Positions 275 to 43,084 of a stretch of 43,743 nt of DNA are shown piece by piece. Under the pieces are notes generated by a model that ran no database searches, was not told the origin of the DNA, and saw only the letters and a program-made list of their open reading frames with translations. The position numbers and the translations under genes were made by a program. Source of the stretch: a virus (taxonomy: Duplodnaviria > Heunggongvirae > Uroviricota > Caudoviricetes); IMG/VR virus record IMGVR_UViG_2711768004_000006. One strand, 5' to 3'. Each line of letters opens with the position of its first letter. Position 1 is the stretch's first letter.

Positions 275-1981
275 ATGTTACCGATAAATAATAACTTTTC
301 ATTGTCCCAAAATTCTTTTTATAACACTATTTCCGGTACATATGCTGATTACTTTTCAGCATGGGATAAATGGGAAAAACAAGCGCTCCCCGGTGAAAAT
401 CGGAATGAAGCGGTCTCCCTACTTAAAGAATGTCTCATCAATCAGTTCAGTGAGCTTCAACTGAATCGTTTAAATCTGTCCTCGCTACCTGACAACTTAC
501 CACCTCAAATCACTGTTCTGGAAATTACTCAGAATGCCCTAATATCATTACCAGAATTGCCAGCATCGCTGGAATACCTTGACGCCTGTGACAATCACCT
601 GTCAACACTTCCTGAATTACCCGCATCTCTGAAACATCTTGATGTAGATAACAACCAACTAACCATGCTTCCTGAATTGCCTGCATTGCTGGAATATATT
701 AATGCAGATAACAATCAGCTAACCATGCTTCCTGAATTACCTACATCGCTGGAAGTGCTCTCAGTAAGAAATAACCAGCTGACATTTCTCCCTGAGTTAC
801 CTGAATCACTGGAAGCGCTCGATGTAAGTACTAATCTTCTGGAAAGCCTACCAGCCGTACCTGTAAGAAATCATCACTCAGAGGAAACCGAGATATTTTT
901 CCGGTGCCGCGAGAATCGCATCACATACATTCCGGAAAATATACTTAGCCTTGATCCGACCTGCACTATCATCCTCGAAGACAATCCTCTGTCCTCACGG
1001 ATCAGGGAGTCTCTGTCGCAACAAACCGCCCAACCGGACTACCACGGCCCACGGATTTACTTCTCCATGAGTGACGGACAACAGAATACACTCCATCGCC
1101 CCCTGGCTGATGCCGTGACAGCATGGTTCCCGGAAAACAAACAATCTGATGTATCACAGATATGGCATGCTTTTGAACATGAAGAGCACGCCAACACCTT
1201 TTCCGCGTTCCTTGACCGCCTTTCCGATACCGTCTCTGCACGCAATACCTCCGGATTCCGTGAACAGGTCGCTGCATGGCTGGAAAAACTCAGTGCCTCT
1301 GCGGAGCTTCGACAGCAGTCTTTCGCTGTTGCTGCTGATGCCACTGAGAGCTGTGAGGACCGTGTCGCGCTCACATGGAACAATCTCCGGAAAACCCTCC
1401 TGGTCCATCAGGCATCAGAAGGCCTTTTCGATAATGATACCGGCGCTCTGCTCTCCCTGGGCAGGGAAATGTTCCGCCTCGAAATTCTGGAGGACATTGC
1501 CCGGGATAAAGTCAGAACTCTCCATTTTGTGGATGAGATAGAAGTCTACCTGGCCTTCCAGACCATGCTCGCAGAGAAACTTCAGCTCTCCACTGCCGTG
1601 AAGGAAATGCGTTTCTATGGCGTGTCGGGAGTGACAGCAAATGACCTCCGCACTGCCGAAGCCATGGTCAGAAGCCGTGAAGAGAATGAATTTACGGACT
1701 GGTTCTCCCTCTGGGGACCATGGCATGCTGTACTGAAGCGTACGGAAGCTGACCGCTGGGCGCTGGCAGAAGAGCAGAAATATGAGATGCTGGAGAATGA
1801 GTACCCTCAGAGGGTGGCTGACCGGCTGAAAGCATCAGGTCTGAGCGGTGATGCGGATGCGGAGAGGGAAGCCGGTGCACAGGTGATGCGTGAGACTGAA
1901 CAGCAGATTTACCGTCAGCTGACTGACGAGGTACTGGCCCTGCGATTGTCTGAAAACGGCTCACAACTGCACCATTCATAA
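275..1981 (+). CDS. ipaH: IpaH-family type III effector, E3 ubiquitin ligase (N-terminal LRR + C-terminal NEL domain)
   Basis: N-terminus MLPINNNFSLSQNSFYNTISGTYADYFSAWDKWEKQALPGE, repeated LTxLPELP LRR units, conserved NEL C-terminus with catalytic Cys in ATESCEDR (codon 1352-1354). ORF track starts at 266 (MSIM...); ATG at 275 matches the usual IpaH start. Confidence 0.9.
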   Translation: MLPINNNFSLSQNSFYNTISGTYADYFSAWDKWEKQALPGENRNEAVSLLKECLINQFSELQLNRLNLSSLPDNLPPQITVLEITQNALISLPELPASLEYLDACDNHLSTLPELPASLKHLDVDNNQLTMLPELPALLEYINADNNQLTMLPELPTSLEVLSVRNNQLTFLPELPESLEALDVSTNLLESLPAVPVRNHHSEETEIFFRCRENRITYIPENILSLDPTCTIILEDNPLSSRIRESLSQQTAQPDYHGPRIYFSMSDGQQNTLHRPLADAVTAWFPENKQSDVSQIWHAFEHEEHANTFSAFLDRLSDTVSARNTSGFREQVAAWLEKLSASAELRQQSFAVAADATESCEDRVALTWNNLRKTLLVHQASEGLFDNDTGALLSLGREMFRLEILEDIARDKVRTLHFVDEIEVYLAFQTMLAEKLQLSTAVKEMRFYGVSGVTANDLRTAEAMVRSREENEFTDWFSLWGPWHAVLKRTEADRWALAEEQKYEMLENEYPQRVADRLKASGLSGDADAEREAGAQVMRETEQQIYRQLTDEVLALRLSENGSQLHHS

Positions 1982-3779: not shown

Positions 3780-4335
3780 GTAAGCGTGCAGCAAGAACCG
3801 TATTGACGGGAATGTGTTATTCAGTCGGCAGTGCTACGCGCCAGGGGAGCAGTTCGCCGACCCGGTTTATCGGCCAGTCGGCTATGACGTCAAGGACATA
3901 GCGGAGGTAGCTTTCTGGCTCCACTCCGTTCAGTTTGCACGTCCCGATCAGGCTGTACAGCAGCGCTCCCCGCTCTCCTCCATGATCCGAACCGAAGAAC
4001 AGGTAGTTTTTGCGGCCCAGACTGACCATCCGCAACGCATTTTCAGCGATGTTATTGTCCGCCTCAGCCCAGCCATCATCTGCATAGTACGTCAGCGCCG
4101 GCCACTGGTTCAGGGCATATGCGAACGCTTTCGCCAGTTCTGAGTGTCGCGACAGGGTTTTCATCTTTTCACGCAGCCAGCTTTCCAGGGATTTCAGCAG
4201 CGGTTTCGTTTTCAACTGACGTTCGGCAAGGCGCTGTTTCAGCAGGAAGATGTCGTCAGAAGAGATGTCGTTCATAAGCCCGTATTTTACCGGGCTTATT
4301 CTGTGACAACCAGGATAAAGAGATTTACAGCATGG
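3780..4335 (-). mobile_element. IS66-family element 3' fragment (tnpC C-terminal part plus terminal repeat)
   Basis: Plus strand at 3780 begins GTAAGCGTGCAGC (IS66-type terminus); ORF 3817-4275 encodes the TnpC C-terminus; in-frame stop at 4336-4338 marks the truncation. Confidence 0.7.
3817..4275 (-). pseudogene. tnpC: IS66-family transposase TnpC, C-terminal fragment
   Basis: ...ENALRMVSLGRKNYLFFGSDHGGERGALLYSLIGTCKLNGVEPESYLRYVLDVIADWPINRVGELLPW; only ~150 aa of a ~500-aa protein. Confidence 0.75.
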
Positions 4336-6719: not shown

Positions 6720-8774
6720 TTACGCGTTATTCACTTCCACCACGATACTGTCAATCAGTACCGGGTAAGTCGCATTTTTAGTGATATCGGTCACGCGCAA
6801 CTTGTCTGCCGTAAACGTGCCGACCGGAGACTGCGACAGCATGAATGGTGTCCCGTCCTTACCATCAATGACCGGCGTCACCTCAATACTGTTGTTACCG
6901 GCAAAACGGAAGCCCAGCGTATGCCATTCGTTATTAAATGCGCCGAATGACCCCAGCTTCGTGTTCTGCGCCGTGTTTCCTTTGTGATACATCACGTTAA
7001 GGTCTGTGGCATCGCTCTGTACGTAGAACGATGCCAGCAGGTTATGACCGGCATTTCCTTCCAGAGTAACCCCTTGCGGCAGGGCAGAAACCGGCCAGTA
7101 CAGCGCCAGTGCGTACTGATTAGCCGTAAGCGCGCCATCGAGTTTAAAACGACAACTGACAAGACCACCTTTACCCAGCAGGTCCGCACCATTACCAGCA
7201 TCATGCTCAAGGTACCAGGGGGCTCTTCCTGTTTCCTTGGTCAGTTTCATTGCCTTACCCCCGCTGGCTCCGGCATCATCCACGATTTGAGCCTTGCCAC
7301 CTCCGGCAGCCCAACCCTGTGGTGTCAACCGTCCTTCAGACTCAGATGCCCGGTAAGCAAATAGCGTACTCATCGTCGTGGTGTCTGCGGGTGGCGTGGA
7401 CGGTTTTGATGGTGTATCAGGTGACGGCTTCTCATCCGGTGGTGTCACGGTCTGCCCACGCATCAGTTCAGCCGTGCGCCCTGCATGGAGCATAATAGCT
7501 GAGGCCAGACGGTCTGAAATGACGCCCCTGCGTGCCCATGAGCTGAAATGGCTGTCACGCTGTGTCGAAACAAAACTGCCCTGGGTTCGGGATGCTGCAC
7601 CGTAATACCCGACAGCCACAATATCCGGGTCTTCCGCCGGAGCATTCGTTGGCGTGCTCTGTCCATTCTCATCCGTCAGGAACGGTACAAAGAAAATTTT
7701 CTGTGCTTCCTTGCCTTTGTAGCCACCGTATACTGCCTCATATTTATCGGTGCCAGCGTTTTTCCAGTAATACGTGGTATCACCGCAAATCCACGGCACC
7801 GTGGTGGCATTTCCACTCACGCACTGCGCAGCAAGCGGAGCCAGGTCAGTTCTGAACTGCTGAACCATGGCCGTGAATAAACTATTATGCTGCTGGCTTC
7901 CTGAGGCAAGGTCTGCCTCTCCCTGCATCCAGACCACAGCCAGAAGTTTGTTTTTCGGGTTTTTCGCCAGCGCGACTTTGGTGCGGCTTACCAGGTCCTG
8001 ATACAGAGGTTTACCGGCCCCCCAGCGTGAAGAATCAGCGGAAGCACCGCTGGCCTCACTGAATGAGCCGTCGGCTCCAGTGGTGAATGCTGACCCGCCA
8101 CGACAACAGGGCACCAGAAGTATCCCGGCATTCTGTGGGATATAGGGAAGCAGTTTTTTGGCAATATGCAACCCCTGACCGACAGTCCCGTACTGGCCTT
8201 TTGCCAGATCAGCTTTCGGGTGGTTTATCCCGCTCATATCCTGAACATCATGCAGGCAGTGGTCTGCCGGAATGATGTCGTTGTATGTACACGACGTACC
8301 GTTGGGCGTTACCGTACTGCGGCGTGCCAGTTGCTTAATGCGTGGGTCCGGGCGGTCAAACGAATCCGGTAACGGCAGCCCCTCGCCGTAGGCCATGCCA
8401 TTTGACTGACCCGCGAGAATGACAACAAAGTAATATTCCGGCTCTGAACTGCTGCCATTCGTGCTACCGGAAGGCCCGGCGTTATCCGGTGCATTCCAGT
8501 CGGAGGGCGTGAGCGTTCCGGCCACGTCAGATGTGATTGGAATGATGCCAGTCACGCCTGAACTGGTGATTTCTGCACTGGGATTACCGGATACCGGCAT
8601 TACCCATAATGGCTCTTTCGTGCTGAAGCGGATCACGCAGTCTGCGAAGGTGATCCCCCCTTTATTACCCGAAGGGCGGAAAGGGCTTTCAATAAATGCC
8701 ACCGTGCCACCGGCAACCTTGACTGAAAACTCTCCGGGCATGGCGGAGAGCATTTTCCACTTGGAGTCTGACAT
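6720..8774 (-). CDS. SGNH/SASA-family carbohydrate O-acetylesterase-like protein with C-terminal lectin-like domain (prophage cargo)
   Basis: GQSNG motif (ILAGQSNGMAYG, Ser codon about 8403-8405) and WMQGEAD motif typical of sialate O-acetylesterase-type SGNH hydrolases; Pro/Thr/Ser linker; beta-rich C-terminus. Confidence 0.6.
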   Translation of the reverse strand: MSDSKWKMLSAMPGEFSVKVAGGTVAFIESPFRPSGNKGGITFADCVIRFSTKEPLWVMPVSGNPSAEITSSGVTGIIPITSDVAGTLTPSDWNAPDNAGPSGSTNGSSSEPEYYFVVILAGQSNGMAYGEGLPLPDSFDRPDPRIKQLARRSTVTPNGTSCTYNDIIPADHCLHDVQDMSGINHPKADLAKGQYGTVGQGLHIAKKLLPYIPQNAGILLVPCCRGGSAFTTGADGSFSEASGASADSSRWGAGKPLYQDLVSRTKVALAKNPKNKLLAVVWMQGEADLASGSQQHNSLFTAMVQQFRTDLAPLAAQCVSGNATTVPWICGDTTYYWKNAGTDKYEAVYGGYKGKEAQKIFFVPFLTDENGQSTPTNAPAEDPDIVAVGYYGAASRTQGSFVSTQRDSHFSSWARRGVISDRLASAIMLHAGRTAELMRGQTVTPPDEKPSPDTPSKPSTPPADTTTMSTLFAYRASESEGRLTPQGWAAGGGKAQIVDDAGASGGKAMKLTKETGRAPWYLEHDAGNGADLLGKGGLVSCRFKLDGALTANQYALALYWPVSALPQGVTLEGNAGHNLLASFYVQSDATDLNVMYHKGNTAQNTKLGSFGAFNNEWHTLGFRFAGNNSIEVTPVIDGKDGTPFMLSQSPVGTFTADKLRVTDITKNATYPVLIDSIVVEVNNA

Positions 8775-33099: not shown

Positions 33100-33522
33100 T
33101 CAGAAAAGCCGTGGCTGCGTGCGTTCCTGATGCAGGCGACGCTGGTTGCGGATAACGGAGTAAATCTGCGTCTCTGACATCTGGTAGTGGCGGCGCAGGG
33201 TTTCAATTTTTTCGCCCTGGCTCCAGCGGGAAAAAATTTCATTATTGCGCAGTTCGGTGAAAAGGGATTCACCGACCGGGAGATAATAACCACGCCCGCC
33301 CATGTACCCGGCCTGTGCGGCTGCAACCTTACGGGCAAGCATTCCCGCCTGAGCAGGTTCAATCCCCTGACGGTGCAGTTCAGCACTGATCACATCAACC
33401 AGGTCCCGCAGCGTGCCGGGCCAGTTCTTTTTCAGCTCATCATCAGGAATATCATCCAGACGGTCAATCAGCGCGTGCAGCTGTTCGCTGTCACCAAACA
33501 TGCTCATCTGTGTTTCAGCCAT
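33100..33522 (-). CDS. Mor/C-family late transcription activator
   Basis: 140-aa protein directly upstream of lys with C-terminal HTH; only family member in the prophage. Confidence 0.75.
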   Translation of the reverse strand: MAETQMSMFGDSEQLHALIDRLDDIPDDELKKNWPGTLRDLVDVISAELHRQGIEPAQAGMLARKVAAAQAGYMGGRGYYLPVGESLFTELRNNEIFSRWSQGEKIETLRRHYQMSETQIYSVIRNQRRLHQERTQPRLF

Positions 33523-33592
33523 ACCCGCCTCCGGTCATCATTACACAGGGCAAGTTTAAAATAAAAATCCCGCGCTGTGGCGGGATTTGGGG

Positions 33593-34105
33593 TTAACGGG
33601 GGAATGATTTTTCATACAGCCTGCAAACACGCTCATAACTCATCACTGCACGTTCCGACATATCCAGGGCTGCCAGCATTTTGCGGCGGTGCCAGCGTTT
33701 GAGACGCTCCAGCACATCAGAGGCCAGCGCGGGTTGTTGCTCCAGCCACTGCCAGTTAGCCACACCTTCGCCGTCGTTCTGCGCGGCCGTCTGCGATTTC
33801 ACCCAGCGGTTAAGGGCCGTTTCCCCGCCATCAGAGATAAATCCCTGCCGGTGCATCACTTTCCAGATGGCGCGAATTTTGGCGGTCACCGTACCCGGTT
33901 TTAAGGCCCGGTTAACCGGCTTCTGACGCACTTTAAAACCGCGTTTTTTGAAAACATCCAGCACGCGGGATAACTCACCGGGTGACATATCACGGCAACT
34001 GGATTTGCCGGTGGCTGCCAGCAGCGCGGATGTATAGGTATCATGGTCAAGCTGTAGATCGCGTTTTGCGACATGTATTAAGGTAATCAGGGAAGCGCGA
34101 TTCAT
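33593..34105 (-). CDS. GemA-like regulatory protein
   Basis: 170-aa ORF upstream of the activator, synteny. Confidence 0.55.
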   Translation of the reverse strand: MNRASLITLIHVAKRDLQLDHDTYTSALLAATGKSSCRDMSPGELSRVLDVFKKRGFKVRQKPVNRALKPGTVTAKIRAIWKVMHRQGFISDGGETALNRWVKSQTAAQNDGEGVANWQWLEQQPALASDVLERLKRWHRRKMLAALDMSERAVMSYERVCRLYEKSFPR

Positions 34106-34116
34106 TATCGTGGCTC

Positions 34117-34147
34117 CATAAAAAATGGGCGGTGTTACCGCACCGCC
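34117..34147 (-). terminator. Intrinsic terminator-like hairpin upstream of gemA
   Basis: GGCGGTG-ttaccg-CACCGCC followed on the minus strand by ATTTTTTAT. Confidence 0.35.
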
Positions 34148-34175
34148 ATGTCAATTAACATAAAAGGAAAAATCT

Positions 34176-34415
34176 ATGTCAGATATAAAAAATGCACTTG
34201 ATGTTGCCGCATTCACAATGGCTGGAAATCTTATGGTAACCCTGTTCGATAAGGGGCTGATTTCCCGTGAGGAGGCAATACATATTATCAATCTCGCTCA
34301 AAAAAACTCTACCCCGGAAAATGCAGAAGATATCCAGGATGGCTCATATATTAATACCGACTGGCATTTCGACAATCTCCGGGCCTGTATGGGGATTACC
34401 GCTGAAAAAGATTAA
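34176..34415 (+). CDS. Hypothetical protein (opposite-strand AT-rich cargo gene)
   Basis: 79-aa ORF with AAGGAAA RBS; only plus-strand gene inside the early/middle operon. Confidence 0.4.
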   Translation: MSDIKNALDVAAFTMAGNLMVTLFDKGLISREEAIHIINLAQKNSTPENAEDIQDGSYINTDWHFDNLRACMGITAEKD

Positions 34416-34683
34416 AAATTTTTGCATAATGTTCAGATGTAAGAATTGCTGAACCATCAACACCGAGCCTACGGCGAACGTATTCCTCGCGGGCTATTTT
34501 ATTATCCAGAGATACAGCATCCTTAATCAGGTTAATCTCCCGCTCCATTATCAAAAGGGCTTCTCTGGCTGCAAGATTTTCTTTTATCGCATATTCGATA
34601 ATGTCCCGCATACGTTCAAGCATGCCGATTTTAGCCAGTTCTTCGTCGATAGATTTAGGCGCAAATTTGATTTCTTTTTCCAT
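34396..34683 (-). CDS. Hypothetical protein
   Basis: 95 aa from ATG at 34683, which follows the stop of the upstream microprotein. Confidence 0.4.
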   Translation of the reverse strand: MEKEIKFAPKSIDEELAKIGMLERMRDIIEYAIKENLAAREALLIMEREINLIKDAVSLDNKIAREEYVRRRLGVDGSAILTSEHYAKIFNLFQR

Positions 34684-34684
34684 A

Positions 34685-34828
34685 TTATTCATCCTCACAA
34701 TTTATACATGCAGTGTCGTCGCCCATATCGCAGTGGTTACATTTTATCTCACCACAATGTGGGCACTCTTTCAGATACTCCGGGTCCTCATTTCCACAGG
34801 TGGGACATTCAACAATTTGCTCATCCAT
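34685..34828 (-). CDS. Zinc-ribbon microprotein (47 aa, four CxxC pairs); not in ORF track
   Basis: MDEQIVECPTCGNEDPEYLKECPHCGEIKCNHCDMGDDTACINCEDE; start overlaps the upstream stop as ATGGATGA. Confidence 0.45.
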   Translation of the reverse strand: MDEQIVECPTCGNEDPEYLKECPHCGEIKCNHCDMGDDTACINCEDE

Positions 34829-35153
34829 TATGTATCCCCTGTAATTCCGGCAAGGCCGAAAGATGGCACCAGTGCGTCACCTGTCCGTCCTCATCTTCAA
34901 GGCAGGCTCCGGTTTCTTCATCAATAAAAAAGCCTTCATACCCCATATGGCCGATGCGCAGTTCCTGTTGGTCACCATACTGAACAATCAGCACGACAGC
35001 CTCCATATCAGGCGGAAATGCGTCATCCAGTGAATGCCAGGGATAACCGCGCAAATCCCCGAAATAAACGCCGGTCAGCGTTCCGCCACAGAGCGGCATT
35101 CCGGCGGCACACACAAGAGGTTCATCTGATTCAACAAATAAGGTCGTTATCAT
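34821..35153 (-). CDS. Hypothetical protein
   Basis: 110-aa ORF, ATGA coupling with neighbours. Confidence 0.45.
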   Translation of the reverse strand: MITTLFVESDEPLVCAAGMPLCGGTLTGVYFGDLRGYPWHSLDDAFPPDMEAVVLIVQYGDQQELRIGHMGYEGFFIDEETGACLEDEDGQVTHWCHLSALPELQGIHNG

Positions 35154-35701
35154 GGCGTTAACTCCCGTAATACAGCGTCCTCGGCAGTCCGGCGACGGTA
35201 ATAAACTGCGTGAGCAGAATGTTCAGATATTCCAAACTTTTCGCCAATTTCCCGGAATGACAGACGGCGTGGGTAATCGGAATCACGCAGCTCACGTATA
35301 AGACGTACATCATCATCAGATATGCGCGTGCCGGGGCGTAACTCTCCGCACTTTGTTAATCCAGCACCAATCATTCCTGCCCGACATCTGACAGAATCTT
35401 TATTACGTCCGAGATATTCTCCCATTTGCTGGCAGGTCATTGTTCTGGCATTTTTTCGAATAAACTTATCTTCATCAGGTGTAAATCTTGGGTGTTTATA
35501 TTTCAGTAACTCCGGGTATGAACTGCGCAATACACCAGTCCGGTTATATACAGCCCAGACAGTTCTTTTTATTCTGGCAGCAATATCCTTAACCGGGGTG
35601 GATGAATAAAGCGCAATCAGCAGCGCATCTTCTTCAGGTGTCCACGGACGGACATGAGCGGGGGCGCGACCTTTTAGTCCCATGGGTTGTAATTTCATCA
35701 T
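35150..35701 (-). CDS. Putative DNA-binding protein with repeated HTH-like segments
   Basis: RPWTPEEDALLIALY and PRFTPDEDKFIRKNA repeats plus a C-terminal HTH-like segment. Confidence 0.45.
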   Translation of the reverse strand: MMKLQPMGLKGRAPAHVRPWTPEEDALLIALYSSTPVKDIAARIKRTVWAVYNRTGVLRSSYPELLKYKHPRFTPDEDKFIRKNARTMTCQQMGEYLGRNKDSVRCRAGMIGAGLTKCGELRPGTRISDDDVRLIRELRDSDYPRRLSFREIGEKFGISEHSAHAVYYRRRTAEDAVLRELTP

Positions 35702-35704
35702 GCA

Positions 35705-36220
35705 TCACCCCCTGACTCGCTTTTCAGCAGCATAAAACTCATCAGACAGTATTTCGGTCATTTTCTGTTTTGCGGGTTTTACGCCGCACTGAAGGTAAAT
35801 CACATCGTCAACGCAGAACCACTTCACAGGGCCAAACAGGATTGCCGAGAAATCAATACCCAACCAGAACAACAGCGCATCGGTTCTGGCATACGTGACG
35901 GGCGAATATTCACGCCACAGACTGTTCAGTTCATCAGAGGCAACACGCAGGGTTTTAGGGATACGTGATGTGCGCGGTGTGCAGCTCCAGCCATTCGACG
36001 CAGTCGGTTTTCGCCATAAGTCGCGATGAAAAGGATATTTGTCCTCCGTAAAACGCAGTCCCTTAAAGTAAAATCCACTGATACCGGATACAAATACCGA
36101 CCGGCACGCAACATTCAGCACGGCCTCAAGGCGTTTTGCCTCATCCTTAACTTTCTGGCAGTCCTGCTGGTATTTTTGCCACGCAGCCAGCGCGGAAGGG
36201 TTTGATGTTTTAAAGAACAT
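35705..36220 (-). CDS. Hypothetical protein
   Basis: 171-aa ORF in operon. Confidence 0.45.
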   Translation of the reverse strand: MFFKTSNPSALAAWQKYQQDCQKVKDEAKRLEAVLNVACRSVFVSGISGFYFKGLRFTEDKYPFHRDLWRKPTASNGWSCTPRTSRIPKTLRVASDELNSLWREYSPVTYARTDALLFWLGIDFSAILFGPVKWFCVDDVIYLQCGVKPAKQKMTEILSDEFYAAEKRVRG

Positions 36221-36753
36221 TACGCCACCTCCGCAGATATCCCGGCAGGCGCTGCTGTCCGGTCAACAATCAGGTAGCGCAGAACATGTTCAGTGATATT
36301 CCAGCCGCTTAAACCGCAGATAATGACGCCCAGGCGTATGTCGATATACGCCATCACAAACTGGGGCACGCCTTCTTTCATGGCCTGCTCATCAACTTCA
36401 GCCACCACATAAACGGTTTCACAGGTCAGAACGCCCTGAGCAAATTCCCACGCCATCGACGGAATATCATGCCCCTCAATCCATGGCAGGGATTTTCTGA
36501 AGCCGCACCACTGAACATCATCAGCCGCAGATTCCTGGCTGCATTTGCGACGAACCGGCTGCACCGGGCGGGGACGCGGAATATCATAAAAACCGTTACA
36601 TTCCGTCAGCACGCCTGCATCAACCGCATCACGCAGAAAATAAACCATGGAGGATGGCGGCATATTCATTTTTTCAGCCAGTACACCGCAGGTCAGGCGG
36701 CCATAAATACACAGCCAGTTTTTAACCCCTTCAAGCACTTTTGCATCAATCAT
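36220..36753 (-). CDS. Hypothetical protein with N-terminal winged-helix-like region
   Basis: 177-aa ORF downstream of gam. Confidence 0.45.
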   Translation of the reverse strand: MIDAKVLEGVKNWLCIYGRLTCGVLAEKMNMPPSSMVYFLRDAVDAGVLTECNGFYDIPRPRPVQPVRRKCSQESAADDVQWCGFRKSLPWIEGHDIPSMAWEFAQGVLTCETVYVVAEVDEQAMKEGVPQFVMAYIDIRLGVIICGLSGWNITEHVLRYLIVDRTAAPAGISAEVA

Positions 36754-36898
36754 GATTTATTTCCCCACCACATTATTAATGACGATATAAACGTATTTCA
36801 TATTTCTTAACCCTTATTTTCTGTTTTCAGGCGCAAGCAGTCCCCTGACGCGAGCGCCATAATTAAAATGAAGTGATATTTAATTGATTAATGCGGTG

Positions 36899-37429
36899 TT
36901 ATTTATTCAGTCCGGCGTCCTGTTCAAAAGGCTCGACATAAAAACTTTCAGCGCCTTTATTCACCTTGATACCGGCAATGCCTTTCACAGCATCCGGCTC
37001 CGCCAGGACGGCTTCCTTGTTCACTTCCTCTTTCGTGCGGATGAAACGCTCAAGCCCCATACGGCGCAGCATTTCAATCACACCTTCCACATCACGGCTG
37101 ACGCTGCATGATGGCGTTCCCAGCCGCCATGACACCGTTCCGGTGGTCAGATTGGCTGTTTTGGTTTTGCCGCCGTTCGTCAGCTCATCACGGTTGGTTT
37201 TGCACCAGTCCTGAATCCCTTTAAAAAGCACTTTGATTTGCTTTTTAAGATTTTCAATCTGCGGCGTATAACGGGCGGTGATTTCTGCCACTTCGTCATT
37301 CATCGCCGTTTCCAGGCGCAGCGCCTCTCGCTGAATATCTCCCAGGGTGCGGATATCACGGCTGACTTCTTCCCGGGTCTGCGGTGCCGCCTCGGCTGCG
37401 GCCTTTAATTTTGTAACGCGTTTAGCCAT
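36899..37429 (-). CDS. gam: Host-nuclease inhibitor Gam (Ku-like DNA end-binding protein)
   Basis: MAKRVTKLKAAAEAAPQTREEVSRDIRTLGDIQRE...; size and position match Mu Gam. Confidence 0.85.
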   Translation of the reverse strand: MAKRVTKLKAAAEAAPQTREEVSRDIRTLGDIQREALRLETAMNDEVAEITARYTPQIENLKKQIKVLFKGIQDWCKTNRDELTNGGKTKTANLTTGTVSWRLGTPSCSVSRDVEGVIEMLRRMGLERFIRTKEEVNKEAVLAEPDAVKGIAGIKVNKGAESFYVEPFEQDAGLNK

Positions 37430-41886: not shown

Positions 41887-42117
41887 TTACGCGACCTTAC
41901 GAATGTAGCGGCTGGGCCAAATCTCCTCGGGCGGCACCCCCAGGCATTCCGCGATAATCCCCTCATACTTGGGAACATGGCGGTATACCGCGTTGTACAG
42001 ATTGTTCTGACCCACGCCAGCTTTACGGGCCAGCGCCCTCATGCTTCCTTCTCTGGCTCTGACTTCCCCCAAAATTCTTTGAGGATGCCAATCAGGCTTA
42101 ACTTCATTTCTCGCCAT
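41887..42117 (-). CDS. ner: Ner-like DNA-binding regulator
   Basis: 76-aa HTH protein, first gene of the early operon, divergent from c. Confidence 0.85.
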   Translation of the reverse strand: MARNEVKPDWHPQRILGEVRAREGSMRALARKAGVGQNNLYNAVYRHVPKYEGIIAECLGVPPEEIWPSRYIRKVA

Positions 42118-42302
42118 GATTCATCTATCCTAAAAAGTTACGAAATTTGATAACTAAACTTAGTTATCAAGTTTGATATAAGTATTGATCCACTTCTGCT
42201 TCATGTAAAGCAAAAAAAACATCTTTCTTTTGTCTATTGTGGATCAATGGTTGCTGACAACACTAAAAGTTAATAATTTCAAATTGATAGGAAGAAAAGA
42301 AA
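42118..42302. promoter_or_regulatory. c-ner divergent promoter/operator region
   Basis: Perfect palindrome TGATAACTAA-ac-TTAGTTATCA (42148-42169); inverted repeats TTGATCCAC (42185-42193) and GTGGATCAA (42239-42247) flank an A-rich tract. Confidence 0.55.
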
Positions 42303-42848
42303 ATGAACAAGCAAACAACAACATCTCTTTCTTTTCCTGGTGGTAGAAAAGAAAGCATTGCTGAGCGTCTGAAAAGGCTGATTGGCTCCCGCAGCGTCAG
42401 AGCTGCAGCAAGAGATTGGGGGCTTTCATTTTCAACACTAAACAATTATCTGTCTCGTGGCACTGAGCCATCCTTAAGTGTCGCCCTTCAGATTGCGTCT
42501 ATCGAAGGAGTAAGTGTTGAGTGGCTATGTGGATTCAGTGATGCATCACAAGTGAATCGGTGTGAGATCAAGGAAAATCAAGATGAAAGCAAGAAGATAA
42601 TTATGACGATTATCAGCGCACTTGATGAAAAAGACTTAGAGCAGCTATCGAAAAATTTGGTTCTGAATGGAGCCAAGTACTTAGCTCGGTTGTTAGAGCC
42701 TGAAAATCAAGATCTAATCCGCTTAGAAGGAAGGAAAAGAATAGCTGCATTACAGCTTGAAGGTATGTCTGACGAACGCGTCAGAGAGATTTTGGAAGAA
42801 ACTGAGAGAAGTCGCAAATCTAACGCGGTAGAACCAAAAGCGGGTTAA
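42303..42848 (+). CDS. c: Prophage repressor c (Mu Rep-like)
   Basis: 181-aa protein with N-terminal HTH-like region, divergent from ner next to the left end. Confidence 0.7.
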   Translation: MNKQTTTSLSFPGGRKESIAERLKRLIGSRSVRAAARDWGLSFSTLNNYLSRGTEPSLSVALQIASIEGVSVEWLCGFSDASQVNRCEIKENQDESKKIIMTIISALDEKDLEQLSKNLVLNGAKYLARLLEPENQDLIRLEGRKRIAALQLEGMSDERVREILEETERSRKSNAVEPKAG

Positions 42849-42918
42849 TAGCATTAGCCCGCATTTTGCACTATATCGAGTATTTCGCATTGTTTGGAAC
42901 GCCTTAAAAGACTAAAAC

Positions 42919-43084
42919 CACAGTATCAAATGAGTTGCCGATTTTATAATAAATGACTAATTATTGCACAATCGGTATCAAATAGACCTTATCCGCACAT
43001 CTAGCCATCACCTGTTTTATTTCAGTATCTTACAGGTGATTTCACCTCCTTTCACTAAACCCCTTGTCGGTATCAAATGATTCA
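42919..43084. repeat. Prophage left-end (attL) transposase-binding repeats
   Basis: GTATCAAA / CGGTATCAAA motifs near 42925, 42975 and 43068 (reverse complement of the right-end TTTGATACCG repeats). Confidence 0.5.

Follow-up and report, generated by a model that had tools for sequence, protein, structure and literature searches.

An opposite-strand gene family, orfX, and a terminator-like hairpin predicted beside gemA in the early region of Mu-like phages

Phage Mu is a paradigm phage, yet to our knowledge gp11–gp15 of its distal early operon have no assigned molecular function. What such a segment contains, and how much of it is peculiar to the prophage that carries it, is the question raised by positions 34106-36753 of a 43 743-nucleotide (nt) stretch of viral DNA (IMG/VR record IMGVR_UViG_2711768004_000006; the whole stretch is called the window below). 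This block is 100% identical to a prophage of Escherichia coli 600029 (NZ_CM128582.1) with Mu-like gene order, and the window carries a Mu-like E. coli prophage with its early operon on the minus strand. The left anchor of the block is gam (36899-37429, minus strand; Pfam Phage_Mu_Gam, E = 5.5e-42) and the right anchor of its variable segment is gemA (33593-34105, minus strand; Pfam GemA, E = 1.8e-28). Between them lie six minus-strand open reading frames (ORFs) and one plus-strand ORF, here called orfX; MuB-like and transposase genes are found upstream on the same strand as the six. A first-pass annotation of the sequence had described an accessory early region of a transposable phage, and the Gam and GemA flanks together with homologs of Mu gp11–gp14 bear this out: flanks, transposase strand and the order gp11-gp12-gp13-gp14 are those of the Mu-type semi-essential early region, of which the block is the promoter-distal half. 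The main novelty, a modest one, is that comparative evidence points to orfX and an RNA hairpin as a conserved module beside gemA across Mu-like phages.

The plus-strand gene orfX

orfX (34176-34415, plus strand) encodes an acidic protein of 79 residues; it is divergent from gemA and convergent with the gp14 homolog, the 3′ ends of the two overlapping by 20 nt. The earlier description of an AT-rich, convergent gene agrees with that overlap and with a G+C content of 42.1% for the ORF, but low G+C is no peculiarity of the gene, since it spans the whole gp13-gp14-orfX cassette (34106-34836; 41.6%, against 52.8% in the window).

The orfX protein matches phrog_32893 along residues 1-79 (E = 1.3e-45). 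A word-indexed search returned close relatives only, with at least 78% identity; when 1.84 billion representatives were searched exhaustively with a profile, 15 matches emerged, including remote members of 67-91 residues with 29-41% identity. These remote homologs keep the length of the ORF, their indels are in frame, and they share an N-terminal FDxAAFxxAGNxLxxLxxKGxISxxEA and a C-terminal DWHLDNLxAxL motif, both of which the window protein retains. In the aligned family, phrog_32893 is matched by all 12 sequences and phrog_38610 by 10 of them. Every remote member for which the context was fetched lies on the strand opposite to the early operon, between a gp14-like gene and gemA. This synteny is seen in a Klebsiella-type prophage (L041-L043; L numbers are our labels for the loci compared), a true Mu-type phage (L044/L045), L046, D108, SfMu, a Yersinia phage and Mu. 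The orfX start lies 70 nt from the gemA ATG in the window and exactly 70 nt from it in Mu; for L041, L044 and L046 the spacing is 68-74 nt. The convergent overlap with gp14 recurs in the gene tables of L041, L044, L046 and SfMu.

A hidden Markov model (HMM) of the family, run against 7214 six-frame segments of all fetched loci, matched syntenic opposite-strand ORFs only. The D108 match (E = 1.2e-14) falls in a 376-bp unannotated gap of the GenBank record [L049 (GQ357916), ~457-906, minus strand], and the Mu match scores 20.3 bits (E = 1.8e-5 among 927 segments). SfMu_16 and a gene of a Yersinia phage are members that are already annotated on the opposite strand. The Mu ORF has 88 codons [7896-8162, complement, in the record; 3897-4163, minus strand, in L002 (AF083977)]. 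Its kinship with the window protein escapes BLASTP (E = 0.38, nothing useful), so that Smith–Waterman alignment with shuffles and the family profile were needed to see it. The first 43 residues align without gaps and with 12 identities, the Smith–Waterman score is 45 compared with 23.6 ± 4.4 for shuffled sequences, and none of 5000 shuffles reaches the score of the N-terminal 45 residues.

Could the plus-strand ORF nevertheless be a non-coding artefact, and the 290-bp gap be regulatory (a region of a gemA ‘semi-early’ promoter) or encode a gene of the Mu_54 type? The Mu reference record does annotate Mu_54, an early-strand ORF of 55 residues, in the orfX region, as well as a promoter over the intergenic region; BLASTP alone misses the similarity between the opposite-strand ORFs of the window and Mu; frameshifted orfX alleles exist; and close relatives differ at few sites, with ~2 synonymous vs ~5 non-synonymous differences in the first 43 codons. 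However, the Mu_54 frame resembles none of the window frames (z ≤ 1.4), nor does the window offer an early-strand ORF of this kind, while the in-phase early-strand frame antisense to orfX has stop codons in both Mu and the window. The preservation of ORF length, of both motifs and of the reading frame in the remote homologs, the restriction of the profile to opposite-strand ORFs of Mu and D108 among thousands of six-frame segments, the calls made by gene finders in SfMu and the Yersinia phage, and the confident helical fold obtained with AlphaFold2 all oppose an artefact, which we hold to be very improbable. Judged by this pattern of conservation, orfX is a bona fide conserved protein-coding gene family. 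The Mu member was noticed decades ago, an old Mu left-end record having a ‘putative F-134’ ORF at the orfX site, and was never followed up; the reference annotations of Mu and D108 probably need correcting to include a conserved gene on the opposite strand.

Run on the 12 orfX sequences, AlphaFold2 predicts four helices [predicted local distance difference test (pLDDT) 80, predicted template-modelling score (pTM) 0.67]. The window protein has an isoelectric point (pI) of 4.5 and a charge of −7, and the pI ranges from 4.4 to 5.8 in the family. There is no convincing transmembrane segment (the 19-residue Kyte–Doolittle maximum is 1.27 in the window protein and 1.3-1.6 in the family), no Pfam family, no sequence relative in the PDB and no fold match with E < 0.4 in the PDB or BFVD. 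Being small, acidic and helical, the product would be likelier to bind a protein partner than DNA. A type I toxin–antitoxin system was considered for orfX and rejected on account of the lack of a clear transmembrane helix, the acidic pI of 4.5 and the lack of an early-strand promoter-like site inside orfX.

The middle of the gene contains a short hypervariable patch (34293-34335) with A7 and C8 homopolymers, and frameshifts occur here after codon 43-50. In three independent assemblies (L006-L008) and several protein clusters such mid-orfX frameshifts remove the DWHLDNL motif. They could represent decay or slippage-prone variation.

The hairpin before gemA

A terminator scan locates an RNA hairpin and U-rich tract on the minus strand at 34118-34147 (stem-loop 34147→34128, tract 34127→34118), confirming the terminator-like hairpin and T-run that the first-pass annotation had placed just before gemA. 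The sequence reads GGCGGTG-CGGTAA-CACCGCC, then CATTTTTTAT, then the GGAG and ATG of gemA. The stem has seven pairs, six of them G-C, and a 6-nt loop, with a free energy (ΔG) of −12.4 kcal/mol; only on the early strand does the element resemble a terminator. The GC-rich pairing, the short loop and the U-tract are the sequence features of an intrinsic terminator; termination itself is predicted. By itself the scan performs at chance level (6 sites vs 5.3 ± 2.0 in shuffles), and the significance of the hairpin comes from its conservation across lineages.

The same 7-bp hairpin occurs in eight lineages, 7-10 nt 5′ of the GGAG Shine–Dalgarno sequence of gemA, and pairing is preserved in 56 of 56 cells across the eight, with ΔG between −12.4 and −15.5 kcal/mol. 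Two pairs have compensatory double changes (G-C to C-G and U-A to C-G), and the observed covariation score was reached by 1 of 500 shuffles. Three lineages have G·U pairs, which would be A·C mismatches on the complementary strand. Because G·U is legal on the early strand only, the structure is under selection in the early-strand RNA and not as a DNA palindrome or as part of an orfX leader. A palindromic protein operator was rejected for the same reasons, G·U pairs and strand asymmetry both favouring an early-strand RNA structure. The hairpin is present wherever gemA follows an untranslated gap, that is in prophages of the orfX type, in those with a DUF2513 gene in place of orfX and in L011, where the hairpin alone remains; it is absent from O157-type prophages, in which gemA overlaps or is translationally coupled to the upstream gene.

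A strong intrinsic terminator lies beyond gemA at 33588→33565 on the minus strand (AAATCCCGC-CACAGC-GCGGGATTT plus TTATTTTAAA), between the gemA stop at 33593 and the mor start at 33522. gemA is therefore bracketed by two terminator-like hairpins.

The best overall explanation, in which we place slightly better than even confidence, is that the block is a Mu-type early-region tail with a conserved orfX and an early-strand attenuator before gemA. The six minus-strand genes would come last in the early operon, their translation relying on coupling or close re-initiation. The early transcript would be untranslated over the 290 nt antisense to orfX, since no early-strand ORF spans them, and would then form the hairpin and U-tract ahead of the gemA ribosome-binding site. 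The hairpin would serve as an attenuator, a partial intrinsic terminator limiting read-through from the early promoter into gemA, and the second terminator (33588→33565) would limit read-through into mor, the gene of the late-gene activator; attenuation would then occur twice, and both terminators together may help to time the early-to-late switch. orfX would have a non-consensus promoter of its own, reading against the early operon; this would make the gene independent of the early promoter, and it is possibly expressed in the lysogen.

The sequence that follows the stem varies among lineages, and it is here that a second explanation has to be weighed. The tail is U6 in the window, UUUCUUUU in L046, UGUUUUU in L011, UGUUGUU in L004, UGUAUUAU in L044, AUUCUUC in L041 and CCCUUUCC in Mu. 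The hairpin and its pyrimidine tract might be an architecture for translation initiation or mRNA stability of gemA instead of a terminator: the stem-loop would insulate the ribosome-binding site from the RNA antisense to orfX, protect a processed gemA mRNA, or both, with the unpaired U/C-rich stretch serving as an S1 or standby site. The distance between hairpin and GGAG, constant at 7-10 nt in the eight lineages regardless of the quality of the U-tract, would suit this, as would the restriction of the hairpin to loci in which gemA follows an untranslated gap and its absence where gemA is coupled. The Mu tail is also poor for a terminator, and in Mu it is established that Mor, encoded downstream of gemA, depends on early transcription. 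Set against this, the tails of the window, L046 and L011 are those of classical intrinsic terminators, and an unambiguous terminator directly after gemA indicates that this end of the operon makes use of terminators. We regard the translational or stability explanation as unlikely, and rate attenuation somewhat higher for the window hairpin because of its U6 tail.

Several observations weigh against the attenuator and the conserved orfX as set out above. In Mu the tail CCCUUUCC is a poor U-tract, at which TransTermHP made no call in the Mu record, and Mor is made from the Mu early transcript, so that the hairpin is no efficient terminator, at least in Mu. The Mu record also annotates a ‘semi-early promoter’ over the orfX–gemA intergenic region. 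Frameshifts at A/C homopolymers disrupt orfX in 3 of the 12 window-type loci and 4 of the 10 protein clusters and remove the C-terminal motif, so that in some prophages the gene is either not needed or in decay. Neither orfX nor the hairpin occurs in Mu-like prophages of the O157 type. Within 140 nt upstream of orfX in six lineages no sigma-70 consensus site of at least 8/12 was found, from which we infer a promoter that is weak, activator-dependent or located further upstream inside gemA. Finally, gp12, gp13, gp14 and orfX gave no fold or sequence match that points to a function.

A more ambitious proposal is that orfX, the hairpin and the gemA start form an unrecognised regulatory module, with orfX expressed in the lysogen independently of the early promoter and cooperating with the attenuator to gate read-through into gemA and mor, the two thereby setting the timing of the early-to-late switch or the commitment to it, or else with the acidic orfX protein antagonizing GemA or a host target; Mu_54/gp15 would then be a mis-call and the true gene would lie on the opposite strand. 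We think this proposal decidedly unlikely as a whole. The orfX-hairpin-gemA arrangement and the pattern of hairpin presence do bear on the regulation of the early-to-late switch.

Early-strand genes and the mosaic cassette

BLASTP against phage Mu (AF083977) identifies four of the six minus-strand genes as homologs of Mu genes. The first-pass annotation held the block to be of unknown function, with nothing assignable; no function is established for any of it, but these four genes can be named as gp11–gp14. Seven tightly coupled genes with several ATGA overlaps had also been reported. The six minus-strand ORFs are indeed tightly packed, the seventh gene being on the plus strand, but there is a single true ATGA overlap (−4 nt), between the genes for proteins of 183 and 110 residues. 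The other junctions are −1 nt (TAATG) between gp11 and gp12, +3 nt between gp12 and the 183-residue gene, −8 nt (sequence ATGGATGA) between the 110-residue gene and the zinc-ribbon gene, and +1 nt between the latter and the gp14 homolog if this begins at ATG 34683.

The first gene of the block (36220-36753, minus strand) encodes a homolog of Mu gp11 of 177 residues, with 68% identity over the full length (BLASTP E = 9e-83) and a match to phrog_1949 (E = 4e-105). A winged-helix-like N-terminal region is followed by a Gp11_C domain at residues 90-167 (PF25754; 139.2 bits, E = 5.7e-41; gathering cut-off 27 bits). The 145-nt spacer between gam and this gene (36754-36898) is AT-rich (~42% G+C) and has a weak promoter-like match inside; in many related prophages an extra gene of ~181 codons occupies this position. 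Overlapping the gp11 stop by 1 nt, the gp12 homolog (35705-36220, minus strand; 171 residues) is 55% identical to Mu gp12 (BLASTP E = 4e-70).

The next two genes are foreign to Mu. The 183-residue protein (35150-35701, minus strand) has three Myb/SANT-like or helix-turn-helix (HTH) repeats, as suggested by a match to phrog_323 ‘transcriptional regulator’ (E = 5e-53) and by below-threshold Pfam matches to Myb_DNA-binding, HTH_AsnC-type and HTH_10; RefSeq names for it include ‘SANT/Myb-like DNA-binding’. Two alleles, ~98% and ~72% identical to the window copy, circulate among related E. coli prophages, and tblastn against Mu gave no match. On this evidence it is a predicted triple-HTH DNA-binding protein, carried as a lineage-specific insert. 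The acidic protein of 110 residues (34821-35153, minus strand), whose gene forms the ATGA overlap with the 183-residue gene, matches phrog_6925 (E = 2e-51) and has a weak similarity to Pfam DUF551 (E = 0.062, under the cut-off); in the comparison of loci its gene has no counterpart in Mu or in O157-type prophages. With a net charge of −17 and a pI of 4.05, its composition is of a type found in DNA-mimic and anti-restriction proteins.

The 47-residue protein at 34685-34828 (minus strand) had been put forward as an unannotated zinc-ribbon microprotein. The ORF is as described, with four CxxC pairs (at residues 8, 22, 30 and 41) and a start that overlaps the upstream stop, by 8 nt, and it is preceded by a GGGGA Shine–Dalgarno sequence 6 nt 5′ of the ATG. 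It is also missing from the annotation of the identical RefSeq record NZ_CM128582.1, but it is a homolog of Mu gp13 (E14), 88% identical to residues 20-60 in a core of 41 residues (BLASTP E = 2e-27), and homologs occur in 15 phage records, being annotated in Mu, D108, SfMu and Yersinia Muviruses. A search for homologs of the 47-residue protein gave just 10 close clusters. Comparison with Pfam zinc-ribbon families (Zn_ribbon_LapB, DZR, Zn_Ribbon_1 and related) stays below the cut-off throughout (best 16.8 vs 25.7 bits), and the match to the Lar restriction-alleviation family TIGR03655 is not significant (12 bits, E = 0.2, cut-off 39.6), with only the first CxxC knuckle aligned. By homology, then, this putative double zinc ribbon is the product of a Muvirus gene that is known though uncharacterised, and no protein of the block is better conserved. 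In the Mu-type phage L045 (4510-5205) the gp13 zinc ribbon forms the C-terminus of a 231-residue protein that matches phrog_6418 and sits in the place of gp12. Its N-terminal domain of 175 residues is unrelated to gp12; a gp12–gp13 fusion was rejected on this ground, and the zinc ribbon is a portable C-terminal module.

The gp14 homolog (34396-34683, minus strand) has 95 residues from ATG 34683 or 100 from GTG 34698. It is 49% identical to Mu gp14 (BLASTP E = 2e-30), the alignment starting at residue 6 of the long form, and phrog_6075 aligns with residues 6-100 of that form. RefSeq calls the 288-nt version, and a GAGGA Shine–Dalgarno sequence lies 5′ of ATG 34683, which is most likely the start. 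PDB sequence searches with gp11, gp12, the 183- and 110-residue proteins, gp14 and the orfX profile gave nothing significant, and a search of the available literature on gp11–gp14, the gemA/gem operon and early-operon termination found no functional data. The early operon begins towards the end of the window, and a stretch there, at ~42000-43000, is markedly AT-rich (G+C fraction 0.35-0.44) and presumably contains the repressor/operator region.

How variable is the block? Window proteins were mapped onto ~40 related loci from IMG/VR, RefSeq and metagenomes; a gemA-relative search of genome contigs had produced 77 pattern matches, none confirmed, and viral contigs used instead supplied 32 loci. 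gp11, gp12 and the 183-residue gene are found in all related loci compared, so the earlier notion of a variable block applies to the segment from the end of the 183-residue gene to gemA, which is swapped. This segment has at least five forms in the ~40 loci. The window type consists of the 110-residue gene, gp13, gp14 and then orfX on the opposite strand; the DUF2513 type of the 110-residue gene with two further genes on the early strand and a DUF2513 gene on the opposite one; the O157 type of three unrelated small genes without an intergenic gap; the minimal type of the 110-residue gene alone; and a mixed type is a further form. In complete E. coli genomes a gemA of the window type is present in 231 of 5426. 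Part of the block is matched in 232 E. coli genomes and at least 80% of it in 14; alignments mostly break at ~34837 or ~35147, and the 731-bp gp13-gp14-orfX cassette (34106-34836) occurs in exactly those 14 genomes that cover the block. Counted by record, 233 E. coli entries match the block. The segment from the 183-residue gene to gemA is a recombinational mosaic, in which the window has the Mu-type cassette gp13-gp14-orfX. In E. coli 2012EL-2448 (NZ_CP027586.1) an IS1A insertion breaks this cassette. In L004 (E. coli JE86-ST02) a gene with a DUF2513 domain (136 residues; 1942-2352) takes the same opposite-strand slot beside the gemA hairpin; L009, L013, L014 and L038 also have the DUF2513-type slot, and L011 keeps the hairpin but has lost the DUF2513 gene. 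The slot beside gemA seems to accept opposite-strand genes repeatedly.

Such swapping is what would be expected if the AT-rich cassette were a hot-spot of acquired morons with host-takeover, anti-defence or superinfection-exclusion roles, its plus-strand gene being expressed from the prophage. The low G+C content of the cassette compared with the window, its occurrence in only 14 of the 231 E. coli genomes with this gemA, and the DUF2513 gene that fills the same spot elsewhere are consistent with acquisition; the 110-residue protein (−17) and orfX (−7) are acidic, like many anti-restriction proteins and DNA mimics, and the opposite orientation of orfX frees its expression from the early promoter. 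However, gp13, gp14 and orfX are found together, with order and orientation unchanged, in Mu, D108, SfMu, Yersinia Muviruses and Klebsiella-type prophages, so the cassette is ancestral to Muvirus and not a recent moron. The idea of the opposite-strand gene as a sporadic moron fails on the same point, the family having one position and orientation in distant Mu-like phages. Nor was an own promoter or a downstream terminator found for orfX: there is no plus-strand terminator-like site past 34415, although weak or activator-dependent promoters are possible. PADLOC-DB gave no family at E ≤ 1 for any of the seven block proteins, PADLOC covering defence systems and not anti-defence, and no structural similarity to known inhibitors was found. 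Taken together, these points make a moron hot-spot unlikely.

The block is no defence island, the PADLOC search being empty; anti-defence genes in it are neither supported nor excluded, and an NCBIfam search of the block proteins gave no significant match. The block is also not a set of genes fixed in every Mu-like phage with known housekeeping roles. The seemingly novel zinc ribbon and AT-rich gene have turned out to be old Muvirus genes, a sobering outcome for searches for anti-defence functions, and accessory functions are better sought in the lineage-specific 183-residue HTH protein and acidic 110-residue protein than in the zinc ribbon or orfX.

Comparison with known systems

The closest known system is the semi-essential early region of Mu (Mup11–Mup15, AF083977/NC_000929), which occupies the same place between gam and gemA. 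Window and Mu share the order gp11-gp12-...-gp13-gp14-[opposite-strand ORF]-hairpin-gemA, the stem of the hairpin and the 70-nt spacer. The window differs in having the extra genes for the 183- and 110-residue proteins between gp12 and gp13, in a gp13 that lacks the 19 N-terminal residues of Mu gp13, and in an orfX whose kinship with the Mu copy is remote (20 bits against the family profile). The window hairpin ends in a genuine U6 tract; gemA and mor, which overlap in Mu, have a terminator between them; and there is a single Mor/C-family gene. For orfX the closest known families are phrog_32893 and phrog_38610, both of unknown function, which include SfMu_16 of Shigella phage SfMu. We know of no earlier description of its positional rule, always divergent from gemA and convergent with gp14 with a hairpin between orfX and gemA.

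The cassette resembles phage morons in its low G+C content, the opposite orientation of one gene, its sporadic presence in E. coli and the DUF2513 alternative in the same slot. Unlike morons, orfX has no recognisable promoter or downstream terminator of its own and is conserved together with its neighbours across Muvirus-like phages; the sole terminator-like element lies 5′ of orfX and is oriented against the other strand.

The hairpin itself compares best with intrinsic terminators that act as attenuators within operons, with which it shares a 7-bp GC-rich stem, a loop of 4-6 nt, a U-rich tail and compensatory changes. It departs from them in the uneven quality of its tail, U6 in the window but CCCUUUCC in Mu, and in that the element, whose termination activity is predicted, abuts the Shine–Dalgarno sequence of the next gene.

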